A DNA stretch of 64,000 nt from Candidatus Micrarchaeota archaeon. Lineage in GTDB: Archaea > Micrarchaeota > Micrarchaeia > Burarchaeales > JAKAKT01. Under the pieces are notes generated by a model. The model did not search any database and was not told where the DNA came from. It worked only from the letters and a program-made list of their open reading frames with translations. The stretch spans positions 8,577 through 72,576 of the forward strand of contig JBFYLO010000011.1 in assembly GCA_041305385.1 (NCBI GenBank). The letters run 5' to 3'. Made by a program: the position numbers and the translations under genes. Shown here piece by piece: positions 3,156 through 31,297 of this stretch. Each line of letters starts with the position of its first letter. Position 1 is the stretch's first letter.

Positions 3156-4475
3156 TTAGTTCCCAAGCTCCCCGTGAACTCTCACTAAGAATTCGTTCAG
3201 CTTCCCAGGCTCGAGCTTCCCGCCAGCAGCGATGTTGTGCCCTCCCCCCAAGCCAATCCCCTCAGTCGCGGCGTGCAAGAGCTTCGAGAGATTAACTCCC
3301 TCCTTAATGAGCTTCTGCGTGGCCCTGCCTGAAATCTTTATGCTTCCTTCATCGTAAAATGCGATTGCAATTATCGGCTTGTCCCTGCTTATAACCGAAT
3401 ACAGCATCCCGGCTACGACCCCGATAATCCCGTCCTCAATTACTCCCCGTCCATCCAAAAAGTAGAACTTTCCATAGTCCTCAACAGCATTCCGCCCATA
3501 TTCAATGCCGTCCCTCAGGGCTTTCCTGTGCTTCAGCAGAAGGGCGCTCGCTTCCTTGTAGGCTCCCTCCTCGCCAAGGCAAACCCCTACCCCGACCTCG
3601 GGCTTCCCGTGCCTCCCGCAGGCATTAATCAAAGTGGAGAATTCCTTCGCATCCGAGAGCTCGGTTCCAGCCGGCCTTCTAGGGAGCCCATAAACCTCCC
3701 CAATCAGTTCGCTGGCACTGTGGCCCTTCCCTACAGAATAAAGGTGCTTCACAAGCCCGCTCACAAATGTTTTTTTCTCCTCCCTGCTCAGTTCCCCGTA
3801 TTTCCTCCAGTTTTCCCCTTGCTTGGGCTCAATCCCGATGTCAGCGAGAAATGTTCCGGCTTTCTCCTCGCTCCCGGTTATCCCAGGCAAGTAGGGTTCG
3901 GTGCAGTAGGCAAGAAAAGAAACTAGCGGCCTGCTCACCCTTCCGAAGAGCCTCAAGTCCTGCTCGCAAGTTATTTCACCAGCCTCAACTCCCTGCTCGA
4001 GCACTTTCCTGTTCCAGCCAATGAACGGGTCCTGCATGTCCCCAACTGAGCCAACGATTGCGAGGTCCGCAAGGGAAGGCTCGCTGAAAACCAGGTAAGC
4101 GGTGCTCGAAGCAGACAGCTCCTTCCCGCCGTCAATTCCGAAAATGAAGGGGTTCACCTGGAGCACCTTACTATCATTGGCCTGGTGGTGGTCTATTATC
4201 AGCACTTCCGAATCAGGCAGGAGCTCCCCAATCCTCTCCCCCATCGCCCCGCCAAAATCAACGAAAACAATTTCGCGCTCACCCCTCAGCCCCTTCACAA
4301 TCCCCTCATCGAGGCTCCTGAAAGTTCTATTCTGAGGGTCCTTCCCCATCCCCATGAGTCCTTTCTTCACAAGCGAGCCAGAGCAAACCCCATCGCAGTC
4401 GTAGTGGTTGACAATGAGAGGATTCTTCATTCTCGCAAGAAACTCTCGCCCCTCTTTGCACCTGTCCTCGAACAT
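3156..4475 (-). CDS. DHH-family phosphoesterase (archaeal RecJ/GAN-like nuclease)
   Basis: Contains HYDCDGVCS (DHH motif I), VDFGG and IIDHHQ (DHH motifs), and a GGGH-containing DHHA1-like C-terminus. TATA TTTAAATATTT lies on the minus strand at 4495-4506. Confidence 0.7.
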   Translation of the reverse strand: MFEDRCKEGREFLARMKNPLIVNHYDCDGVCSGSLVKKGLMGMGKDPQNRTFRSLDEGIVKGLRGEREIVFVDFGGAMGERIGELLPDSEVLIIDHHQANDSKVLQVNPFIFGIDGGKELSASSTAYLVFSEPSLADLAIVGSVGDMQDPFIGWNRKVLEQGVEAGEITCEQDLRLFGRVSRPLVSFLAYCTEPYLPGITGSEEKAGTFLADIGIEPKQGENWRKYGELSREEKKTFVSGLVKHLYSVGKGHSASELIGEVYGLPRRPAGTELSDAKEFSTLINACGRHGKPEVGVGVCLGEEGAYKEASALLLKHRKALRDGIEYGRNAVEDYGKFYFLDGRGVIEDGIIGVVAGMLYSVISRDKPIIAIAFYDEGSIKISGRATQKLIKEGVNLSKLLHAATEGIGLGGGHNIAAGGKLEPGKLNEFLVRVHGELGN

Positions 4476-6272: not shown

Positions 6273-8156
6273 CTATTTCTTGTCATTCACCTTGTAATCC
6301 GCATCGTAGACATTGTCCCCGCCAGGTCCGTAATTGCCCTTGAAGCTGTCGCTTCCTCCACTGGCTCCCGGGCCTGCGGAGCCCCCGCCCCCGCTTCCGC
6401 CAGCACCTGCGCTTCCCTGGTACATAGAACCCCCGGCCTTCTGCATCACGTCCTTTAGTGCGTCTCTCCTAATTTTCACCTGCGCAATGTCCTGGCCTTG
6501 GAGCGCTTTCTTTAGGTCTTCAGTCTTCTCAGAGACTTCCTTCTTCAGGTCTGCTGAAAGCTTTTCCCCATATTCCTTGAGCATCTTCTCAGCAGTATAC
6601 ACCAAGGTTTCCGCTTCATTCTTGGTCTCAGCCTGCTCGCGAACCTCCTTGTCCTTCTCCTCGAACTTCTTTGCCTGTTCCATCATCTTCTCGACATCCT
6701 CCTTCGAGAGCTTGTTCGGGGCCATAATGGTGATTTTCTGCTCCTTCCCAGTCCCCTTGTCCTTCGCAGAGACGCTGAGAATCCCGTTTGCGTCTATGTC
6801 GAAGGCGACCTCCACCTGGGGCACCCCCCTCTGGGCAGGCGGAATCCCGTCCAGCCTGAAGTTGCCGAGCTCGACGTTGTCGCGAGCCATTGCCCGCTCC
6901 CCCTGGAGGACATGGATGTCGACGCTGGTCTGGAAATCAGCAGCAGTCGAGAACACCTGGGTTTTCTTTGTCGGGATGGTTGTGTTCCTGTCGATGAGCT
7001 TGGTCATGACTCCCCCAAGGGTTTCAAGCCCCAGCGAAAGCGGCGTCACATCGAGCAGCAGTATGTCCCGCACTTCCCCACCGAGCACGCCTGCCTGAAT
7101 CGCAGCGCCGAAAGCCACGCACTCCATGGGGTCGACTCCCCCTTCTGCTTTCTTGCCAAGCATGCTCTCAACGAAACGCTGCACAATCGGCATTCTGGTC
7201 GGCCCGCCCACGAGAATCACCCTTCCGATATCATTTGGGGTAACCTTCGCATCAGCGAGCGCCTGTTCAACCGAGCCCCTGCACCTCCGAATCAGCGGTT
7301 CGACAATCTCCTCGAGTTTTGCCCTGGTGAAATCGAACACAAAGTGCTTCGGCCCGCTCGAGTCCGCGCTTATAAACGGCAAATTAATCTGCGAGTTCAA
7401 GGTTGTCGAAAGCTCAATCTTGGCCTTCTCAGCAGCCTCTCGAAGCCTCGTATTAGCAACCGGGTCTTTGGATAAGTCCAGTCCTGTCTCTCCCTTGTAG
7501 TAAGCAACAAGGTAGTCGACAATCGTCCTGTCCATGTCCGTTCCGCCCAGCTGGGTGTCCCCGCTCGTGGACTTGACCTCGAATACCCCGCCTCCGAACT
7601 CCATTACCGTTACATCGAGAGTCCCGCCCCCAAGGTCGAAGACCAGGATTTTCTGCTCCTTCCCGGCTTTGTCAAGCCCATAGGCGAGCGAGGCAGCAGT
7701 CGGCTCGTTGATTATCCTGACTACATCCAGCCCAGCTATCGCTCCGGCATCCTTTGTCGCCTGCCTCTGGTTGTCATCGAAATAGGCAGGAACAGTTATC
7801 ACCGCCTTCTCGACCTTGTCCCCAAGGAACGCCTCCGCGTCCCGCTTAATCTTCTGCAATATGAAGGCCGAAATCTGCTGTGGGGTATACTCCTTCCCAT
7901 AAACCTTGTACCTGTAATCAGTCCCCATTTTCCTCTTCGCAGCCATCACCGTTCCTTCTGGGTTGGTAACTGCCTGCCTTCTCGCCGGCTCGCCAACCAG
8001 CATCTGCCCGTCCTTGGTAAAGGCGACAAATGAAGGGAAGGCCTTCCCAGCCACTGTAGTTCCCTCTGCGCTTGGAATAAGCCTCGGCCTGCCTCCCTCA
8101 AGGACAGCAGCAGCCGAGTTCGAAGTTCCAAGGTCAATTCCGATTATTTTTCCCAT
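6273..8156 (-). CDS. dnaK: Chaperone DnaK (Hsp70)
   Basis: Contains [17 protein letters not shown] and the C-terminal GG-rich tail. The ATG at 8156 is preceded by GAGGTG; the ORF track extends to a TTG at 8177. Confidence 0.93.
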
Positions 8157-8211
8157 ATTCAACACCTCTAAACGCAAGTTTTTTCCAGGCTCGCAACAAA
8201 AAAATCCAACT

Positions 8212-8257
8212 GCCCGAGTTCTCGAGGCATCCCGAGATGCCTGTTTTCGAGCCGGGC
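8212..8257 (-). promoter_or_regulatory. Nested palindrome GCCCGAG..CTCGAGGCATCCCGAGATGCC..CGAGCCGGGC between grpE and dnaK; candidate operator or intra-operon attenuator
   Basis: Perfect GGCATC/GATGCC stem with a CCGAG loop, flanked by CTCGAG and GCCCG/CGGGC arms. A T-run follows on the minus strand. The CCGAG-loop hairpin resembles the repeat family. Confidence 0.3.
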
Positions 8258-8277
8258 GAGCATTTTTTTGTTTTGTC

Positions 8278-8829
8278 TCACCTAGCTTTCTCCTCTTCAG
8301 CAGGCTTCCTCGTCACGCTCACCATGGCGTGCCTGAGAATCCGCCCGTTGTAAATGTATCCCTTCCTCATCTCCTTTGCGACAACCCCCTCTCCCCCCTC
8401 GCTTTCGACCATCTCGACCGCATCGCACCGGTCAGGGTCGAACTTCTTCCCAAGGCATACTATGGGCTCCACGCCCTCCCCCTCTAAGAGGTCCTCCAGC
8501 TTCTTGTGCAGGAGGCGGATGCCGTTCCGCAGCTCGCTCTCGCTGCTTGCGTGCATATGGGCCTCTGCGGCCTCGAACTCGTCGGCAAGGGCTATGAGCT
8601 TTGCAAGGACTGCCCCCCTGCCCTTTTCCGAGGCCTCGCCCTTCTCCTTCTCCGTCCGTTTCTGGTAGTTCTCGAACTCCGCCTGAAGCCTCTTCAGGTC
8701 ATTCACGAGCTCCGAGTTTTCCTTTTTCAATCCCTCGGCCTCGCTTTCCCCGGTTTCGAGAGCCACCTTGTCCTCCCCTTCTCCGCACTCAGCCCGCTCT
8801 TTCTGTTGATTCTCCCCTTCGACCATCAC
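8278..8829 (-). CDS. grpE: Nucleotide exchange factor GrpE
   Basis: Coiled-coil N-terminus [14 protein letters not shown] and the conserved GrpE C-terminal beta domain. It overlaps the upstream regulator gene by 4 bp. Confidence 0.85.
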
Positions 8830-15744: not shown

Positions 15745-17154
15745 CTAGTCGCCGAGCTTTTGGCTTATCTCCTTGTGCATCTGGACAAAAACTGCTTTGC
15801 ACCCATCGTGGGAGGCGTTGGAGTTGCAGCTCTTGAGGGCCTTTTTTACCTCGCTCTCGGAAACTACTGTTTGATACAAGTAAAGGCTTCTCGCATAAAT
15901 GAAGAACGGGCAATCACCACCACCTCGAGTCAAGTGCAGTCCAAGAGTTCCCATGTCAAGATGGGAAGAAGACAACAGTTCGCCAGGCAACCCAAAATAT
16001 GCATCGTATCTCGCATCGGCGTCTGGAGGAACTGGTTTTTCTCTCTTCGTAAACTTTACTGATTCAGAGCCGTACAAACCTCGCATAATCAATGGAAATG
16101 CATTGCCTTTAATCGTTATTATTGGTGCACTCGGAACACCGACCAAAGCTACATTCTTCCTTATCCGAACTCCTCCAAACTGTCCATTTGCGGCTTCTAA
16201 CCCTTCTACCGGATATCCGCCGAAGTCTCTTCCATGTATCATGAAAATCGTTGATTTGTCCGAACCAAAAATATAACTGAAAATGGCTAGATAAGAGACG
16301 GATTCTTCTCTCCATAAGTCTCTTATTGCTCGTACTTGTTCTTCAGTAACGCCGCTTATAAAACCGTCTCCGGATTTCATCTCTGTCTTTCCAATTAGGG
16401 GATATCTTTGCATAAAGTCTGCAAGCTTTCCTCTAAACTCAGGGTCATGAGTTAGAATTATCTTCAATTTTACGTCTCCAAAAAAAGCGCTTCCGACCTT
16501 CCCAAGAAATGAAGCATATTTTTCTCCCAACTGCAACACAGCATGTTTAACCTCCTCACCGTCCATTTTAAGCAAACTTGCATTTGCTGCAGAAGAGACC
16601 GCATATTCATAGCTTGGGACTACAAGCGTCAGCTCTTGTCCTGTTGCCCTAGCGATCTCAAAATAACGAGTTGCTTTTACCAACACGTCCCATGAAACCT
16701 TCGTTAGTCCAGAAATCTCCAGCTTCCATTGCGTTGGGAACTCAGTTATCCCCAATTCATCTATGACGCTTTTCGGGATATCGGCTCCGCCATCGAAAAT
16801 TGGTTTCGGTGGTGGGTTCTCTAAAGCCCATTTTACAATTCTCCCATTCGTCACCCCATGTGCAACTACGTCACCATGGTGTAAAAAACAGAAACCGCCA
16901 ATAATCTGTCCATCTCCACCTCGAACTCTTTTTTCAATTAGACTTAGATTTTCACTAAAAAACGCAGAAAATCTGGCCCCGCGGTATCCCTCCACGGTCT
17001 CCTCGCTAACCACTCCTTTTTTTAGAGGGCCAAAAACAGTTATTGGTGCAAATGTCTCTTTACTGGTCCAATGCTGTGTCGCCATCGGGAAAACGTGTTT
17101 CGTGAAATGTCTAGACGTCCCATCAGTTGAAAGAATCCCCTGTCGCATGCCCAT
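15745..17154 (-). CDS. Conserved hypothetical protein (469 aa); weak ASKHA-like N-terminal DxGxT motif
   Basis: Contains ILSTDGTS, GGDGQIIGG and HHGD. No confident family assignment. It is co-directional with and immediately downstream of cysS. Confidence 0.35.
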   Translation of the reverse strand: MGMRQGILSTDGTSRHFTKHVFPMATQHWTSKETFAPITVFGPLKKGVVSEETVEGYRGARFSAFFSENLSLIEKRVRGGDGQIIGGFCFLHHGDVVAHGVTNGRIVKWALENPPPKPIFDGGADIPKSVIDELGITEFPTQWKLEISGLTKVSWDVLVKATRYFEIARATGQELTLVVPSYEYAVSSAANASLLKMDGEEVKHAVLQLGEKYASFLGKVGSAFFGDVKLKIILTHDPEFRGKLADFMQRYPLIGKTEMKSGDGFISGVTEEQVRAIRDLWREESVSYLAIFSYIFGSDKSTIFMIHGRDFGGYPVEGLEAANGQFGGVRIRKNVALVGVPSAPIITIKGNAFPLIMRGLYGSESVKFTKREKPVPPDADARYDAYFGLPGELLSSSHLDMGTLGLHLTRGGGDCPFFIYARSLYLYQTVVSESEVKKALKSCNSNASHDGCKAVFVQMHKEISQKLGD

Positions 17155-26750: not shown

Positions 26751-28007
26751 TCAGCCTTTTTTCCCAGCGAACAGCGAGATAATCGCGGAGATTGCAACCA
26801 GCCCCCCGACCAGCATGAGAGGCGTTGCATAATCCCCCACAGCAAGCCCAACCGTTATGTCGCTTTTAGATACCAGCGCGTAGTCAAGCATCAACGCCAT
26901 TATCTGCGGTCCGACTATCCCCCCGAATCCATAGGCAGTGAACATGAACCCATAGTTTACCCCCATGTTCTTGGTCCCGAACGCATCCGCAGTGGCAGAC
27001 GGGAAGAGGGAGAAGTTCGCTCCGAAGCAAAGCCCTATGAGCGCCATGGAGGCGAAGAGCGACCAGGGCGAGAGATTGCTCGAGAGAAGCACTGTCCAGA
27101 GGAGCAGGGCCTGGAGCCCGAACACAGCGAGCATCGTTTTCTGCCTTCCAACCTTGTCCGAGAGCCAGCCCCCCAAAATCCTGCCGGCCCCGTTGAAAAT
27201 CGCCAGCGCTCCAACTGCCAATGCCGCGAGCGAGGCTGCAGCGGCTTTGTCCATGCCGTGTACGCTGGTGAAGGAGAGCTTCGCGAATGTTGCGAGGTTC
27301 CCGATGACCATGAGGCCAGCGGCAGCGGCGAATGCAAACATCAGCCAAAGCATCCAGAAATTCTTGGTCATGAGCATCTGCCTGGGCCCGCACTCGTTTT
27401 CCGCGCAACTTTTCGCCGATGCCTTCTGCTCAGCCGGGTTCCTGAGCAGGAGCGCGCCAATTGTTATGATGATTGCGATTGCAACCCCAAGGGCGAGGAA
27501 CGTTTGCGTTATTCCCTGCATTTCGATGAGCTTCTGCGCAACCGGGGCGAGGAGAAGCGAGCCGAACCCGAACCCGAAAACAATTATGCCGCTCACCAGG
27601 CCCTTCTTTTTCTCGAACCACTTCACCCCGGCGGCAATGGGCGTTACATAAGCGAGCCCAACACCGGAGCCGCACAATACTCCATAAGTTATGTAAAGAA
27701 TCAACGGCGAGCTTGCGAACAGCGCAGTGGCGATGAACCCGAGCCCAAGCAGAATCCCTCCTGCGAGCGCGACCATCCTCGGGCCCTTTCGGTCCTGAAT
27801 CATCCCGGCGGGAATCATGGATACTGCAAACATCGCGAGCATCACCGAGAAGGCGAGCTGAACCTCGGTTTGCGACCATCCATATTTTTCTACGAGCGGG
27901 CCGGCGAACACGCTCCAGGTATACGTTACCCCGAGCATCAGGTTTATGAGAACCCCGCCTGCAACGACCACCCACCCTGCCCTTTCCTGTTCATCCATAA
28001 TCATCAC
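26751..28007 (-). CDS. MFS transporter, oxalate/formate antiporter (OFA) family
   Basis: 12 TM segments and an OFA-like N-terminus AGWVVVAGGVLINLMLGVTYTWSVF. Confidence 0.8.
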   Translation of the reverse strand: MMIMDEQERAGWVVVAGGVLINLMLGVTYTWSVFAGPLVEKYGWSQTEVQLAFSVMLAMFAVSMIPAGMIQDRKGPRMVALAGGILLGLGFIATALFASSPLILYITYGVLCGSGVGLAYVTPIAAGVKWFEKKKGLVSGIIVFGFGFGSLLLAPVAQKLIEMQGITQTFLALGVAIAIIITIGALLLRNPAEQKASAKSCAENECGPRQMLMTKNFWMLWLMFAFAAAAGLMVIGNLATFAKLSFTSVHGMDKAAAASLAALAVGALAIFNGAGRILGGWLSDKVGRQKTMLAVFGLQALLLWTVLLSSNLSPWSLFASMALIGLCFGANFSLFPSATADAFGTKNMGVNYGFMFTAYGFGGIVGPQIMALMLDYALVSKSDITVGLAVGDYATPLMLVGGLVAISAIISLFAGKKG

Positions 28008-28110: not shown

Positions 28111-29613
28111 ATGGTTCCCTCTAGTTCAAACGGACATGAAAACGGCAAGGAAAAGGAAGAAAAAATTGAGAAGGAGGAGAAGAAAGAAGAGAAGAGGGAC
28201 GAGAAGCCGGAGAAGAAAGAGGAGGAAAAAAAGGAAGAGAAGCGAGAGGAAAAACGGGAAGAGGAGAAGAAGAGTGAGAAGAAGGACGAAAAACAAGAGA
28301 AGAAAGAGGAGAAGAAAAACGGGGAGAAGCCCGAGAAAATCAAATTCTTGTTCGTTTCATTCGAGGGATTGATAGGCGACCTCGCGTGGCAGGTGAAGAG
28401 GGAGGGCCACGAAGTCAAATACTACATACACTCCAAGACCGAAAAGGACGTCGCAGACGGTTTCGTGGACAAGTGTGATGACTGGAAGGCGCTCAAGGAT
28501 TGGGCAGACGTGTTCGTGTTCGATGACGTGGGGTTCGGGAAAATTGCAGATGACTTGAGAAAAGAGGGGAAGGCAGTCGTGGGCGGGAGCGAATACGGGG
28601 ACATGCTCGAGGATGACAGGGAGTTCGGCCAGGACGAGCTCAAGAAGCTTGGCGTCAATGTTCTCCCCCACTGGGACTTCAAGGACTTCGATGCTGCCAT
28701 AGAGTTCGTGCAGAAGAATCCTGGCAGGTATGTGATAAAGCCAAACGGGAAGGCGCAGAACGAGAAGGAGCTCTCCTACATCGGGCAGGAGGAGGACGGC
28801 AACGACATCATCAACGTGCTTGCCCACTACAAGAAGAGCTGGTCCAAGAAGCTCAACGACTTTCAGCTTCAGAAGTTCGCCCAGGGGGTCGAGGTCGCTG
28901 TCGGGGCCTTTTTCAACGGGAAGGATTTCGTTTATCCGATAAACGTGAATTTCGAGTACAAAAAGATGTTCCCAGGAGACATAGGGCCGAACACCGGGGA
29001 GATGGGAACGCTGATGTTCTGGTCCCCACCAACCACGCTGTTCAATGAGACGCTTCTCAAGATGAAGGATGCGCTCGCGCAGGCAGGATACGTTGGCTAC
29101 ATCGACCTCAATTGCATCGCCAATGCGAAGGGAATTTATCCGCTAGAGTTCACCTCGAGGTTCGGCTACCCGACAATCAGCATACAGATGGAAGGGGTGA
29201 CGAGCAACTGGGGGGAGTTCCTGAGGGCTCTTGCCAAAGGCGAGACTACTGAGTTCAGGACCAAGAAGGGATTCCAGGTGGGCGTGGTGATTGCAGTTCC
29301 CCCATTCCCGTTCACAGACCTGTCTTCCTTCAGGAAATATTCCGAGGATGCAACCATCATTTTCAAGAAGCCCATGACTGATGGCGTGCACATCGGGGAT
29401 GTGAAGCTGGTTGAGGATGACTGGCGGCTTGCGGGCCAATCTGGCTATGCAGTGGTAGTGACGGGCTCGGGGCTGACAGTCGACGATTCACAAAAGCAGG
29501 CCTACAAGCGAATTGAGAACATCCTGATTCCGAACATGTTCTACAGGACCGACATCGGGGAGCGCTGGTCCAGGGACAGCGACATGCTGCACACCTGGGG
29601 CTACTTGTACTGA
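28111..29613 (+). CDS. Phosphoribosylamine--glycine ligase (PurD)-like ATP-grasp enzyme with a K/E-rich N-terminal extension
   Basis: PurD signatures: KFLFVSFEGLIGDLAWQ (cf. KVLVIGSGGREHALAWK), GDIGPNTGEMGT (cf. GDKDTGPNTGGMGA), EFTSRFGYPT (cf. EFNCRFGDPE), and the C-terminus AYKRIENI..YRTDIGER. No other pur genes are nearby. The start is uncertain: either the ATG at 28111 or an internal TTG around 28345. Confidence 0.6.
   Translation: MVPSSSNGHENGKEKEEKIEKEEKKEEKRDEKPEKKEEEKKEEKREEKREEEKKSEKKDEKQEKKEEKKNGEKPEKIKFLFVSFEGLIGDLAWQVKREGHEVKYYIHSKTEKDVADGFVDKCDDWKALKDWADVFVFDDVGFGKIADDLRKEGKAVVGGSEYGDMLEDDREFGQDELKKLGVNVLPHWDFKDFDAAIEFVQKNPGRYVIKPNGKAQNEKELSYIGQEEDGNDIINVLAHYKKSWSKKLNDFQLQKFAQGVEVAVGAFFNGKDFVYPINVNFEYKKMFPGDIGPNTGEMGTLMFWSPPTTLFNETLLKMKDALAQAGYVGYIDLNCIANAKGIYPLEFTSRFGYPTISIQMEGVTSNWGEFLRALAKGETTEFRTKKGFQVGVVIAVPPFPFTDLSSFRKYSEDATIIFKKPMTDGVHIGDVKLVEDDWRLAGQSGYAVVVTGSGLTVDDSQKQAYKRIENILIPNMFYRTDIGERWSRDSDMLHTWGYLY
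28136..28343 (+). repeat. Roughly 200-nt strand-asymmetric polypurine (GA-rich) low-complexity tract encoding a K/E-rich peptide
   Basis: More than 90% A/G on the plus strand (gaggagaagaaagaagagaag...). It encodes EKKEEKREEKREEEKKSEKKDEKQEKKEEKK at the 5' end of the purD-like ORF. Confidence 0.6.
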
Positions 29614-29683: not shown

Positions 29684-31297
29684 ATGCCAGAACTAACCGA
29701 CTCGAAGCAAACTCAGAATCCCGACACTATTAAGCTCATTAACCTTCTTGGTAACCTAGATGGACCAACCAGAAATGAAGGATGGTTAACGGATCTCTGC
29801 ATACTCATCAAGACCGGCGAGAATTGGAAAATAGCGGCTGCGAACTTCGAGAAGCTTTCCAAGTACTTGGAAGAAACTCTTTGCCTTGCGGAAACATCCA
29901 ACTTTCGTCCCTCGATTGTAGCTGAAATAGTGGCGTTTCTAGGACTTAAAGGCTGTGCTGAGGCAACGGAATTTGCAGCCGCGGTATCGAACAGCCCTCA
30001 AAATAAGTTTGCTTCGGCGTTTGCCCAGGAACTAGTCAGGAATATCGCAGACGGCGGTTGCAACTACTTCGCTTCAAACTACGCAATCTTCAGGCAAGCC
30101 GTTTTACGCAACATCTCAGATCCCTTCATGCAGATTCTTCTGCACAGCTCATTCAATGTCGCGAAATCTCCGGCTATCCAGGATGATATCAACAAATTCA
30201 TCTATGGGGAACCAGATACACTCAAAAAATCCCACAGTATAATTTCGCACTTCATGATTAACAAGGACAACCCGCTCAAACCAAAGTGGTTCAGAAAAAT
30301 ACTGGCGTTGTATTCCGACAGGGCAACTCTGGGCCTTACTAACGAGGAAGTATGCGGTTTTGACGGAATCAAGAGCACAATCGGGCGTTCTCTTGAAGAC
30401 CCCGAGCTTATGAGAATGGCGTTCGAGAGCGGAAACGCGGAAATTGGAAAAATAGTAGTGGATCGTCTTGACAGCTTCAGGAACAATCCCGCCAAAGAAA
30501 AATCAGAGCAATATGCCCGCTTCATTCAGGAGGCTTATTCGAAAGCTCTTGAAGGCGATTCGTATCATCTTACTCTAGTGTCGTTCATGCAAGAACGACG
30601 CTTCGATGCTCCAGCCAAACTTCTGAAAGAAAATTTCTTTACAAAAATTCTCCCTAACATAAAGAATGATTCAAGTTGGGCATACCCGATTATGGCAAAA
30701 AACTGCATCGCAGAATTCGATTGGGGTTTCTATAAAAAAGTTTTCAGCAAGATGAACGAACTGTACGAGAAAGAGCAATTGGACGAGCTGTCCAAAATAG
30801 TCGGGATATTGACGGCAGAAATAGGGGCATTCCCCGCGCCGGAAGTGGGGTTTCTTAAGAAAATAGAAATAGCCGCCTATCTTCTTTCCAGCGGCGGGAT
30901 TACCAAAAAGCTCTTTGGTTCCATTGGCGCAATCCTGGGGCTTGCCAAAGGGAACATCCCGGTAAGCCGCGTCTTGAACCTAGTGGGCGAGGACGAGAAG
31001 GCACGGACTTTTGCTCTCATGTCGCTTTCCGTTGCTGTCGAATACACCGCGTTCAGTTTTAACCTCAAACCAGAGCAAGGACAAGAAGACGGCGGCTTCG
31101 TTATTGGCGAATTGGATGACGCGGTGGAAAACACATTCAAAAAAATGGGCAAAAAGGAAAAGGGGAAGCTTTTTTCAATGCTTCATGACGAGAAGATGCA
31201 GGCCGACTTGCTGGGGAACCCAAAGACGAAATACGGCGCCCTCTATCTACTGAAGCTGTTCGATTACCTTTCTGAAAAAGAAAATGCCCCTAATTAA
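29684..31297 (+). CDS. Hypothetical alpha-helical protein (537 aa), no recognisable domain
   Basis: Long clean ORF within an AT-rich island (~42% GC versus ~55% in flanks). There are no TM segments, and the sequence is predicted helical-repeat-like. Confidence 0.5.
   Translation: MPELTDSKQTQNPDTIKLINLLGNLDGPTRNEGWLTDLCILIKTGENWKIAAANFEKLSKYLEETLCLAETSNFRPSIVAEIVAFLGLKGCAEATEFAAAVSNSPQNKFASAFAQELVRNIADGGCNYFASNYAIFRQAVLRNISDPFMQILLHSSFNVAKSPAIQDDINKFIYGEPDTLKKSHSIISHFMINKDNPLKPKWFRKILALYSDRATLGLTNEEVCGFDGIKSTIGRSLEDPELMRMAFESGNAEIGKIVVDRLDSFRNNPAKEKSEQYARFIQEAYSKALEGDSYHLTLVSFMQERRFDAPAKLLKENFFTKILPNIKNDSSWAYPIMAKNCIAEFDWGFYKKVFSKMNELYEKEQLDELSKIVGILTAEIGAFPAPEVGFLKKIEIAAYLLSSGGITKKLFGSIGAILGLAKGNIPVSRVLNLVGEDEKARTFALMSLSVAVEYTAFSFNLKPEQGQEDGGFVIGELDDAVENTFKKMGKKEKGKLFSMLHDEKMQADLLGNPKTKYGALYLLKLFDYLSEKENAPN

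Follow-up and report, generated by a model that had tools for sequence, protein, structure and literature searches.

The stretch of DNA analysed here, referred to below as the window, comprises 64,000 nt of contig JBFYLO010000011.1 (positions 8,577 to 72,576 of the forward strand) from a Candidatus Micrarchaeota archaeon. Its gene content includes DnaK/DnaJ/GrpE, cysteinyl-tRNA synthetase (CysRS), diphthine synthase, Nre and hydrogenase subunits, and at 28111–29613 it carries a complete open reading frame (ORF) encoding 500 residues. A first reading of the sequence, which we refer to as the original prediction, took this ORF for an orphan relative of the glycinamide-ribonucleotide (GAR) synthetase PurD with a lysine- and glutamate-rich N-terminus. 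The motifs that it listed are all present, GPNTGEMGT at residues 292–300, EFTSRFGYPT at residues 346–355 and YRTDIGER at residues 478–485; coordinates of these and other features of the locus are given in Table 1. Comparisons of sequence and modelled structure indicate that the ORF is a genuine translated gene for a PurD-fold ATP-grasp enzyme other than GAR synthetase. To judge from its sequences, the family to which it belongs is large, extremely conserved, mobile across domains and into viruses, and systematically annotated as PurD.

The homology to PurD is real but weak. The window protein scores 49.2 bits against Pfam GARS_A (cutoff 27) and 31.6 bits against GARS_C, under the cutoff of 34.8, and GARS_N finds no match in it, though hhalign does align the N domain. 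Its best sequence match in the PDB is B. subtilis PurD (E = 7e-23), and a profile of the family aligns with E. coli PurD over 401 columns with an hhalign probability of 99.75%. In the AlphaFold2 model most of the core has a predicted local distance difference test score (pLDDT) above 90, and a Foldseek search of the PDB returns PurD at all of the top 15 positions (template modelling score, TM, 0.71–0.77; identity 19–22%), with biotin carboxylase next. The window protein and PurD (EC 6.3.4.13) have the same four-domain ATP-grasp fold. The equivalog model for PurD, NCBIfam TIGR00877, gives 104.1 bits against a cutoff of 288, in a match limited to residues 145–485.

The two proteins have in common the GPNTG-MG loop, a (D/E)-x-K pair, the Arg of RFG and the C-terminal R-x-D-I-G, and the equivalents of PurD Asp212, Lys214 and Arg287 are retained as E282, K284 and R350. 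Elsewhere the hhalign alignment sets EGLIGDLA of the window protein against the PurD loop GGREHA, with loss of the counterparts of human Arg13 and Glu14, and GKAQNEKE against the B-loop GLAAGKG. In GAR synthetases Arg13 and Glu14 serve the phosphate/acyl-phosphate site and the orientation of the ribose, and all of them share the B-loop motif GLAAGK (PMC2978367). The Mg2+-binding E-F-N of PurD reads E346-F-T348, with the Thr nearly invariant family-wide. The PROSITE signature PS00184, R-[LF]-G-D-P-E-x-[EQIM] as quoted in PMC3261824, is unmatched by R-F-G-Y-P-T-I-S at residues 350–357; the change from RFGDPE to RFGYPT removes the equivalents of Asp295, the proposed general base, and Glu297, which binds glycine in PurD (PMC2978367, PMC8880213), and its Tyr-Pro-Thr is kept in the close clade. 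Judged from the alignment, the positions that serve canonical PurD in handling phosphoribosylamine and the glycine amine, and one that supplies a Mg2+ ligand, carry other residues in the family.

These observations bear on the alternative that the protein is the organism's real but divergent GAR synthetase, with the other pur genes elsewhere in the genome. The full-length homology and common fold, the retained equivalents of Asp212, Lys214 and Arg287, and the database annotations, which read phosphoribosylamine--glycine ligase, would all agree with such a role, and some Micrarchaeota encode purine pathways. Against it are the shortfall from the TIGR00877 cutoff and the loss of the PS00184 Asp and Glu, of GGREH, of the B-loop and of the Mg-binding Asn. 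The distribution of the family, described below, also speaks against it.

Relatives of the window protein are numerous. A word-indexed search returned more than 7,900; the best 120 are 68–92% identical and come from metagenome-assembled genomes (MAGs) of Micrarchaeota, Woesearchaeota, Nanoarchaeota and Thermoplasmatota, and the closest homologues are those named Micrarchaeota. An exhaustive search of 50%-identity representatives yielded 539 clusters with E < 1e-30. At least 578 GTDB species genomes carry the family, the best 80 matches being 61–77% identical, and the carriers include DPANN archaea, Thaumarchaeota, Bathyarchaeota, many bacteria of the Candidate Phyla Radiation (CPR/Patescibacteria), Acidobacteriota, Planctomycetota, Verrucomicrobiota, Spirochaetota and others; several of these genes lie on contigs of 0.2–1.1 Mb. 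Mean pairwise identity is 64.6% among archaeal members, 62.0% among bacterial members and 61.2% between archaea and bacteria, with no split between the domains. The family is thus conserved far more across domains (~61%) than PurD, as gauged by its 19–22% identity to any solved PurD. Plasmid-borne copies are found in four cultured organisms (Halarchaeum, Chondrinema, Sphingomonas and Roseomonas). Two distant members, P0236 and P0249, have in common an N-terminal extension of about 115 residues (…DGVI(T/S)EGIIPE…) that matches nothing in Pfam.

The only mention of PurD-like proteins of this kind that we found in the searchable literature is a remark by Brown et al. (2011; Biol Direct 6:63), who judged two 'extra PurD-like' proteins of Haloarcula and Halorubrum not to be GAR synthetases and noted that they coexist with a normal PurD. 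These proteins, rrnAC0307 and Hlac_1553, were described as lacking a GARS_N match, the Mg site and the PS00184 Asp and as having a divergent N-terminal loop, and the window protein has all four traits; the likeness is to their published description, not to their sequences. Other haloarchaeal members (Halorussus WP_115795769.1 and the Halarchaeum plasmid copy) are 51–53% identical to the window protein. Brown et al. noted two proteins without assigning a function, and the spread across domains and into viruses, the inteins, the linkage to SET and GNAT genes and the K/E-rich tail described below are not in that paper.

No other purine-biosynthesis gene had been noticed in the 64 kb of the window, and we found none by Pfam in 26 of the largest ORFs (of 73 candidate ORFs in total), by tblastn with PurD, PurH, PurL, PurQ and PurS, or by reading the translations outside the Pfam-scanned ORFs by eye. 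Archaeal pur genes are scattered, so their absence from 64 kb says little, and it is the analysis of residues and of the family that decides. We compared the neighbourhoods of homologues at 77 cellular loci by clustering the neighbouring genes. Genes of the pur pathway lie within 8 kb in two of the 77: purQ-purL-purS is 2 kb downstream of the homologue in L008 (9349–12747), and a purM-like gene is two genes upstream in L128 (6291–7367). We considered these neighbours as a sign of a purine role and rejected them, the frequency being about that expected by chance.

Unlike PurD, the family shows no evident linkage to pur genes and is found in viruses, on plasmids (including those of free-living bacteria) and in genomes that already have PurD, such as those of haloarchaea; viral copies sit in structural modules without other pur genes. 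Together with an identity of ~61% between domains, set against 19–22% to any solved PurD, this makes a divergent GAR synthetase quite unlikely. The original suspicion of a non-canonical substrate stands on the missing signature residues and the low TIGR00877 score, and its argument from the lack of pur genes in 64 kb is a weak one. The idea of a non-canonical PurD-like ligase is supported by these alignments and distributions, which would allow it to be put much more strongly than it was at first.

The clustering found no universal partner among the 77 loci. Only two kinds of neighbour recur, SET lysine methyltransferases and FemAB-like/GNAT transferases. A gene for a bona fide SET homologue is at most three genes away in 12 of the 77 loci, drawn from both CPR bacteria and DPANN archaea, and in four of these it is co-directional with gaps of 14–31 nt; a protein of about 300 residues matching FemAB-like/LPG_synthase_C/Acetyltransf_6 (GNAT) families occurs in six. 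The co-directional order SET, (FemAB-like GNAT), PurD-like is seen in L151 (2630–6546), L154 (6570–9272), L159 (7446–9272) and L165 (7499–9278), cassettes from Saccharibacteria and Staskawiczbacteria, and the same partners are present at loci of Aenigmatarchaeota, Woesearchaeota and Nanoarchaeota. The SET link recurs with a Sphingomonas homologue of 35% identity, and in Chondrinema a GNAT gene overlaps the 3' end of the PurD-like gene. A sequence search of the PDB with the FemAB-like partner gave no match. PADLOC defence models matched none of the window protein, a viral homologue, the SET and GNAT partners or the ORF downstream of the window gene. Linkage to transporters, suggested by the divergent MFS gene and an SSF gene next to two homologues, was rejected, as the clustering showed none in general. 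On the Sphingomonas daechungensis plasmid (L177, 7001–8648) the PurD-like gene is annotated as two coding sequences, possibly a frameshift or pseudogene, with a convergent SET gene overlapping its 3' end. One family representative, P0185, has a weak SET match at its C-terminus.

A single-pattern scan of IMG/VR identified 233 viral contigs encoding a relative. These viral members are more distant (31–40% identity) and lack an N-terminal tail. In one group the gene lies between those for the portal and the major capsid protein, and one member (P0175; L012, 2818–6528) is a 1,236-residue fusion of an SPP1-type portal, the PurD-like protein and Phage_Mu_F, adjoining the terminase gene and upstream of the capsid gene. 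In the largest group the gene comes last in a row of genes for large, structural-looking proteins, one of them a head-closure protein, and a divergent primase gene adjoins. PHROGs and Pfam recognised nothing beyond these two among ten conserved neighbours of the viral loci, so the assignment to a module stays approximate. In a complete 43.8-kb Caudoviricetes genome the family gene comes after the tail genes and a GNAT gene. The complete viral genome L180 (MW202796.1), in which the family member is unannotated, has genes annotated as 'ubiquitin' and 'N-acetyltransferase GCN5' (3988–4233 and 7936–8346) within the same structural block. A fold search of BFVD returned distant ATP-grasp proteins only and no family member. 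MuF fusions of tailed phages carry encapsidated effector domains and polyvalent or ejected proteins (PMC5512222), and the architecture of the portal–PurD-like–MuF fusion matches that of such cargo; the likeness concerns distant viral members (~39% identity) known from their genes alone, not the cellular gene of the window.

The pattern of conservation suggests that the catalytic core is under selection. Down to 30% identity the ATP-binding Lys (K210), the ribose-binding Glu (E261), the catalytic E282/K284 pair and the Mg-binding Glu (E346) of the ATP-grasp core are invariant or reach at least 90% conservation, and R350, R479 and D481 are nearly invariant as well. In several members LAGLIDADG/Hint inteins interrupt the core at positions ~225 and 274, that is at GPNTGEMG|T and LEFT|S, within the two most conserved motifs of the family; family-wide invariance and the placing of inteins exactly at active-site motifs both point the same way. 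Intein carriers include P0121, P0123, P0126 and P0143, with LAGLIDADG homing endonucleases, P0123 having two inteins.

It could be argued instead that the protein is a catalytically dead pseudo-enzyme whose role lies in structure, scaffolding or binding, for instance within a virion or another complex. The protein has neither the Mg-ligand Asn nor the glycine-rich B-loop nor the proposed general base Asp, viral copies lie in head and tail modules, with one fused between portal and MuF, and the very high conservation of the whole surface suggests many interaction constraints. A dead enzyme fits poorly with the (near-)invariance of K210, E261, E282, K284, E346 and R350, with inteins at both active-site motifs, as is typical of active enzymes, and with operon partners (SET, GNAT) that are themselves enzymes. 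We give such a role only a slim chance, about that of a divergent PurD.

We regard it as likely that the gene encodes a non-PurD paralogue of PurD with a translated tail. As for its activity, our best reading is a candidate ATP-grasp carboxylate-amine ligase with an acceptor other than phosphoribosylamine, possibly a protein or peptide. ATP would phosphorylate a small carboxylate to an acyl phosphate, possibly that of a glycine-like amino acid since E282 and R350, the equivalents of Asp212 and Arg287, correspond to two of PurD's three glycine ligands. An amine other than phosphoribosylamine would then attack the acyl phosphate. That this acceptor might be a peptide or protein amine (a lysine or an N-terminus) is suggested by the operonic linkage to SET and FemAB-like/GNAT genes and by the viral portal–MuF fusion. 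SET enzymes act on protein lysines, and FemAB-type enzymes aminoacylate amines. We hold this last step with low confidence because the linkage is present at only about one locus in six, and taken by itself a protein- or peptide-directed ligase is a tentative proposal. On balance we favour the reading that joins the paralogue with its translated tail to such a ligase.

RimK, LysX, the graspetide/microviridin ligases (with a GNAT partner) and tubulin-tyrosine-ligase-like (TTL-like) enzymes are carboxylate-amine ATP-grasp ligases that modify peptides or proteins. Compared from general knowledge, they resemble this family in acyl-phosphate ATP-grasp chemistry and in GNAT-type neighbours, and differ from it in belonging to RimK-like or TTL-like clades, not to that of PurD. 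Next to the window gene we found neither a precursor peptide nor a carrier protein. A broader scheme, which we consider rather doubtful, is that of a cross-domain protein-modifying ligase that would attach glycine or another small acyl group to amines (lysine or N-terminal) on a highly conserved target; it would be used by CPR/DPANN episymbionts, free-living prokaryotes and tailed viruses (as virion-delivered cargo), with SET and FemAB-like partners and with the K/E tail as a possible substrate or docking arm.

The conserved core is preceded by a tail of 75 residues. The original prediction described about 75 EK-rich residues encoded by DNA of more than 90% purine, and indeed 69% of residues 1–75 are E (28) or K (24), for a net charge of −3, and a tract of 217 nt is 90.3% purine (86% for 28111–28335 as a whole). 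It is the most strand-skewed 200-nt interval of the 64 kb (0.915, compared with a mean of 0.559 ± 0.044), and the window's three longest stretches of uninterrupted purine (34, 32 and 25 nt) all lie within it. The purine bias is fully explained by GAR/AAR codons, and the tract is a by-product of coding for K and E. It is a degenerate array whose tandem repeats have periods of 9, 12 and 27 nt and whose copies are spaced by 12, 24, 36, 15, 12 and 21 nt, all multiples of three, which is a signature of codon-wise slippage in a translated repeat. An ORF of 78 residues in frame +2 (28136–28372, forward strand), with an ATG start and an extremely R/K-rich product, overlaps the tract; since polypurine DNA is free of stop codons in all three forward frames, such an ORF arises automatically and does not speak for a gene.

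In archaeal and bacterial orthologues alike the core is preceded in frame by a tail with a conserved NG motif and, immediately before KFLFVS, an EEKKPL junction. Of 93 orthologue tails 47 contain the NG dipeptide, where shuffling them gives 12 ± 2.9, and the form NGNG...KK is also found in CPR bacterial copies. Among 117 close homologues, tails are of 0–9 residues in 33 (five of which start slightly inside the core), 10–19 in 63, 20–29 in 13 and at least 40 in eight; seven of the last group are charged tails of 46–129 residues, and the eighth (P0045, 234 residues) looks like a mis-called start. Intermediate tails (EEKKEEKKPL, EEKKAKEEEKKEEKKPL) link the short ones to K/E tracts of 70–130 residues, and even among relatives at least 80% identical tail length ranges from 25 to 75 residues. 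The tail thus appears as a lineage-specific in-frame expansion, by GAG/AAG/AAA units, of a short conserved M-x-NG-x-EEKKPL. AlphaFold predicts residues 1–34 to be disordered and residues 35–68 to form one helix. Like ER/K single alpha-helices, the tail has a proline-free stretch of 39 residues, almost all E, K or R, that is predicted as one helix; unlike them it has only six opposite-charge i/i+4 pairs in those 39 residues, and may simply be disordered. It probably forms a charged helical or disordered spacer. Most simply it is a fast-evolving charged spacer, and a role as docking arm or as the enzyme's own substrate is speculation.

Where translation starts depends on how the tract is read. 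The first of two alternatives put forward originally, a translated N-terminal extension, is the best reading, given the NG motif, the EEKKPL junction and repeats in multiples of three. The second was an untranslated structured leader followed by an internal TTG start, and more generally the tract might be a non-coding regulatory element, either such a leader or an H-DNA/triplex switch, with a start near 28348. In principle a triplex might form at the purine runs (34, 32 and 25 nt), an open frame alone is no proof of coding where polypurine DNA has no stop codon in any frame, and NCBI annotations of some orthologues do begin at the core. On the other side, the RNA of the tract folds no better than shuffled sequences (z = −0.83) and contains no inverted repeats, and the tail motif and junction are kept across archaea and bacteria. 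The TTG at 28348, the only internal start candidate, lies inside invariant residues and was rejected, as a start there would delete K78 and F79 (at least 90% conserved) and replace L80, which like F81 is invariant in the family. The proposed alignment of the PurD start with a TTG near 28345 does not hold either, the homologous position being I77 (ATC) according to hhalign. Two of the short annotations have other explanations. That of the closest homologue (P0001, 92% identity, annotated with 424 residues; L176, 1–1290) is a contig-end artefact because the assembly broke in the polypurine repeat, the contig beginning 15 nt upstream of the core; another, P0007, is the longer P0006 with its start placed at an internal Leu codon. 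A TATA-like box ~27 nt upstream of the ATG likewise argues for the 5' start, and we consider a non-coding element highly improbable.

This TATA-like element, 23–30 nt upstream of the ATG, points to an mRNA with little or no leader. A 90%-identical orthologue locus (L001) has kept the block AAGGCTTATGAACCCC, and the best TATA-like octamer has its centre between −35 and −25 from the tail ATG at 33 of 65 homologue loci, as one would expect of leaderless mRNAs in archaea. Translation probably proceeds from the 5' ATG on a leaderless transcript.

Several points weigh against the reading favoured here. Only ~16% of the sampled loci have the linkage to SET and GNAT; neither the window nor any of the 78 viral loci also checked for it shows it. 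The change of the Mg-ligand Asn to Thr and the loss of the glycine-rich B-loop could mean altered or weak catalysis. The presence of pur genes at two of the 77 loci (purSLQ in L008, purM in L128) and of purine pathways in some Micrarchaeota leaves room for some remaining tie to purine metabolism. Mis-binning may lie behind some MAG taxon labels; that of L104, 'Auribacter', belongs to a locus 89% identical to, and syntenic with, one of Woesearchaeota. The helix of the tail is predicted with modest confidence (pLDDT 54–75), and the promoter and leaderless mRNA are read from sequence patterns only.

Thousands of genomes, and especially those of CPR bacteria and DPANN archaea, whose metabolism is inferred only from annotation, carry this gene under the label 'phosphoribosylamine--glycine ligase'. 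If the family is not PurD, reconstructions of the purine pathway for the organisms that carry it are wrong at the PurD step. An enzyme of 425 residues whose archaeal and bacterial copies remain ~61% identical must do something important; it is also host to inteins, and hundreds of viruses have acquired it. The SET/GNAT linkage and the portal–MuF fusion are concrete starting points for a search for its substrate. As such the polypurine tract is unremarkable: it is a classic coding low-complexity expansion, at which assemblies break and by which start-codon callers are led astray.

Table 1. Features of the PurD-like locus, in window coordinates.
Feature	Position	Strand	Basis
Complete coding sequence, PurD-fold ATP-grasp ligase paralogue, 500 aa	28111..29613	+	ATG start, homology, model
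Conserved core, residues 76–500, full-length PurD homology (N, B, A, C domains)	28336..29610	+	hhalign, Foldseek, pLDDT
GPNTGEMGT loop (PurD: GPNTGGMG); intein site in other family members	28984..29010	+	
EFTSRFGYPT, replaces PurD EFNxRFGDPE (PS00184 region); second family intein site	29146..29175	+	
YRTDIGER C-terminal motif; R479 and D481 family-invariant, common to PurD	29542..29565	+	
Tail head MVPSSSNGHENG with family NG motif	28111..28146	+	NG enrichment in orthologue tails
K/E-rich low-complexity expansion, residues 13–75	28147..28335	+	Composition, repeat periods, orthologue length series
Polypurine/polypyrimidine tract, 217 nt, 90.3% purine on coding strand	28128..28344	.	Composition
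In-frame TTG (L80), internal start proposed earlier, rejected	28348..28350	+	Residue conservation
Putative TATA-like element CTTATGAA	28081..28088	+	23–30 nt upstream of ATG; inferred from sequence
MFS transporter, divergently transcribed, context only	26751..28007	-	Syntenic in closest relatives, not family-wide

Rfam and tRNA scans of the 64-kb window gave no matches. Directly downstream of the PurD-like gene is an ORF of 537 residues (29684–31297, forward strand) without a Pfam or PADLOC match. The closest relatives, L001 and L176, have a minus-strand ORF of about 200 residues directly at this position, and the 537-residue gene therefore looks like a lineage-specific insertion. An ORF of 469 residues on the reverse strand (15748–17154), without a Pfam match, adjoins the cysteinyl-tRNA synthetase gene.

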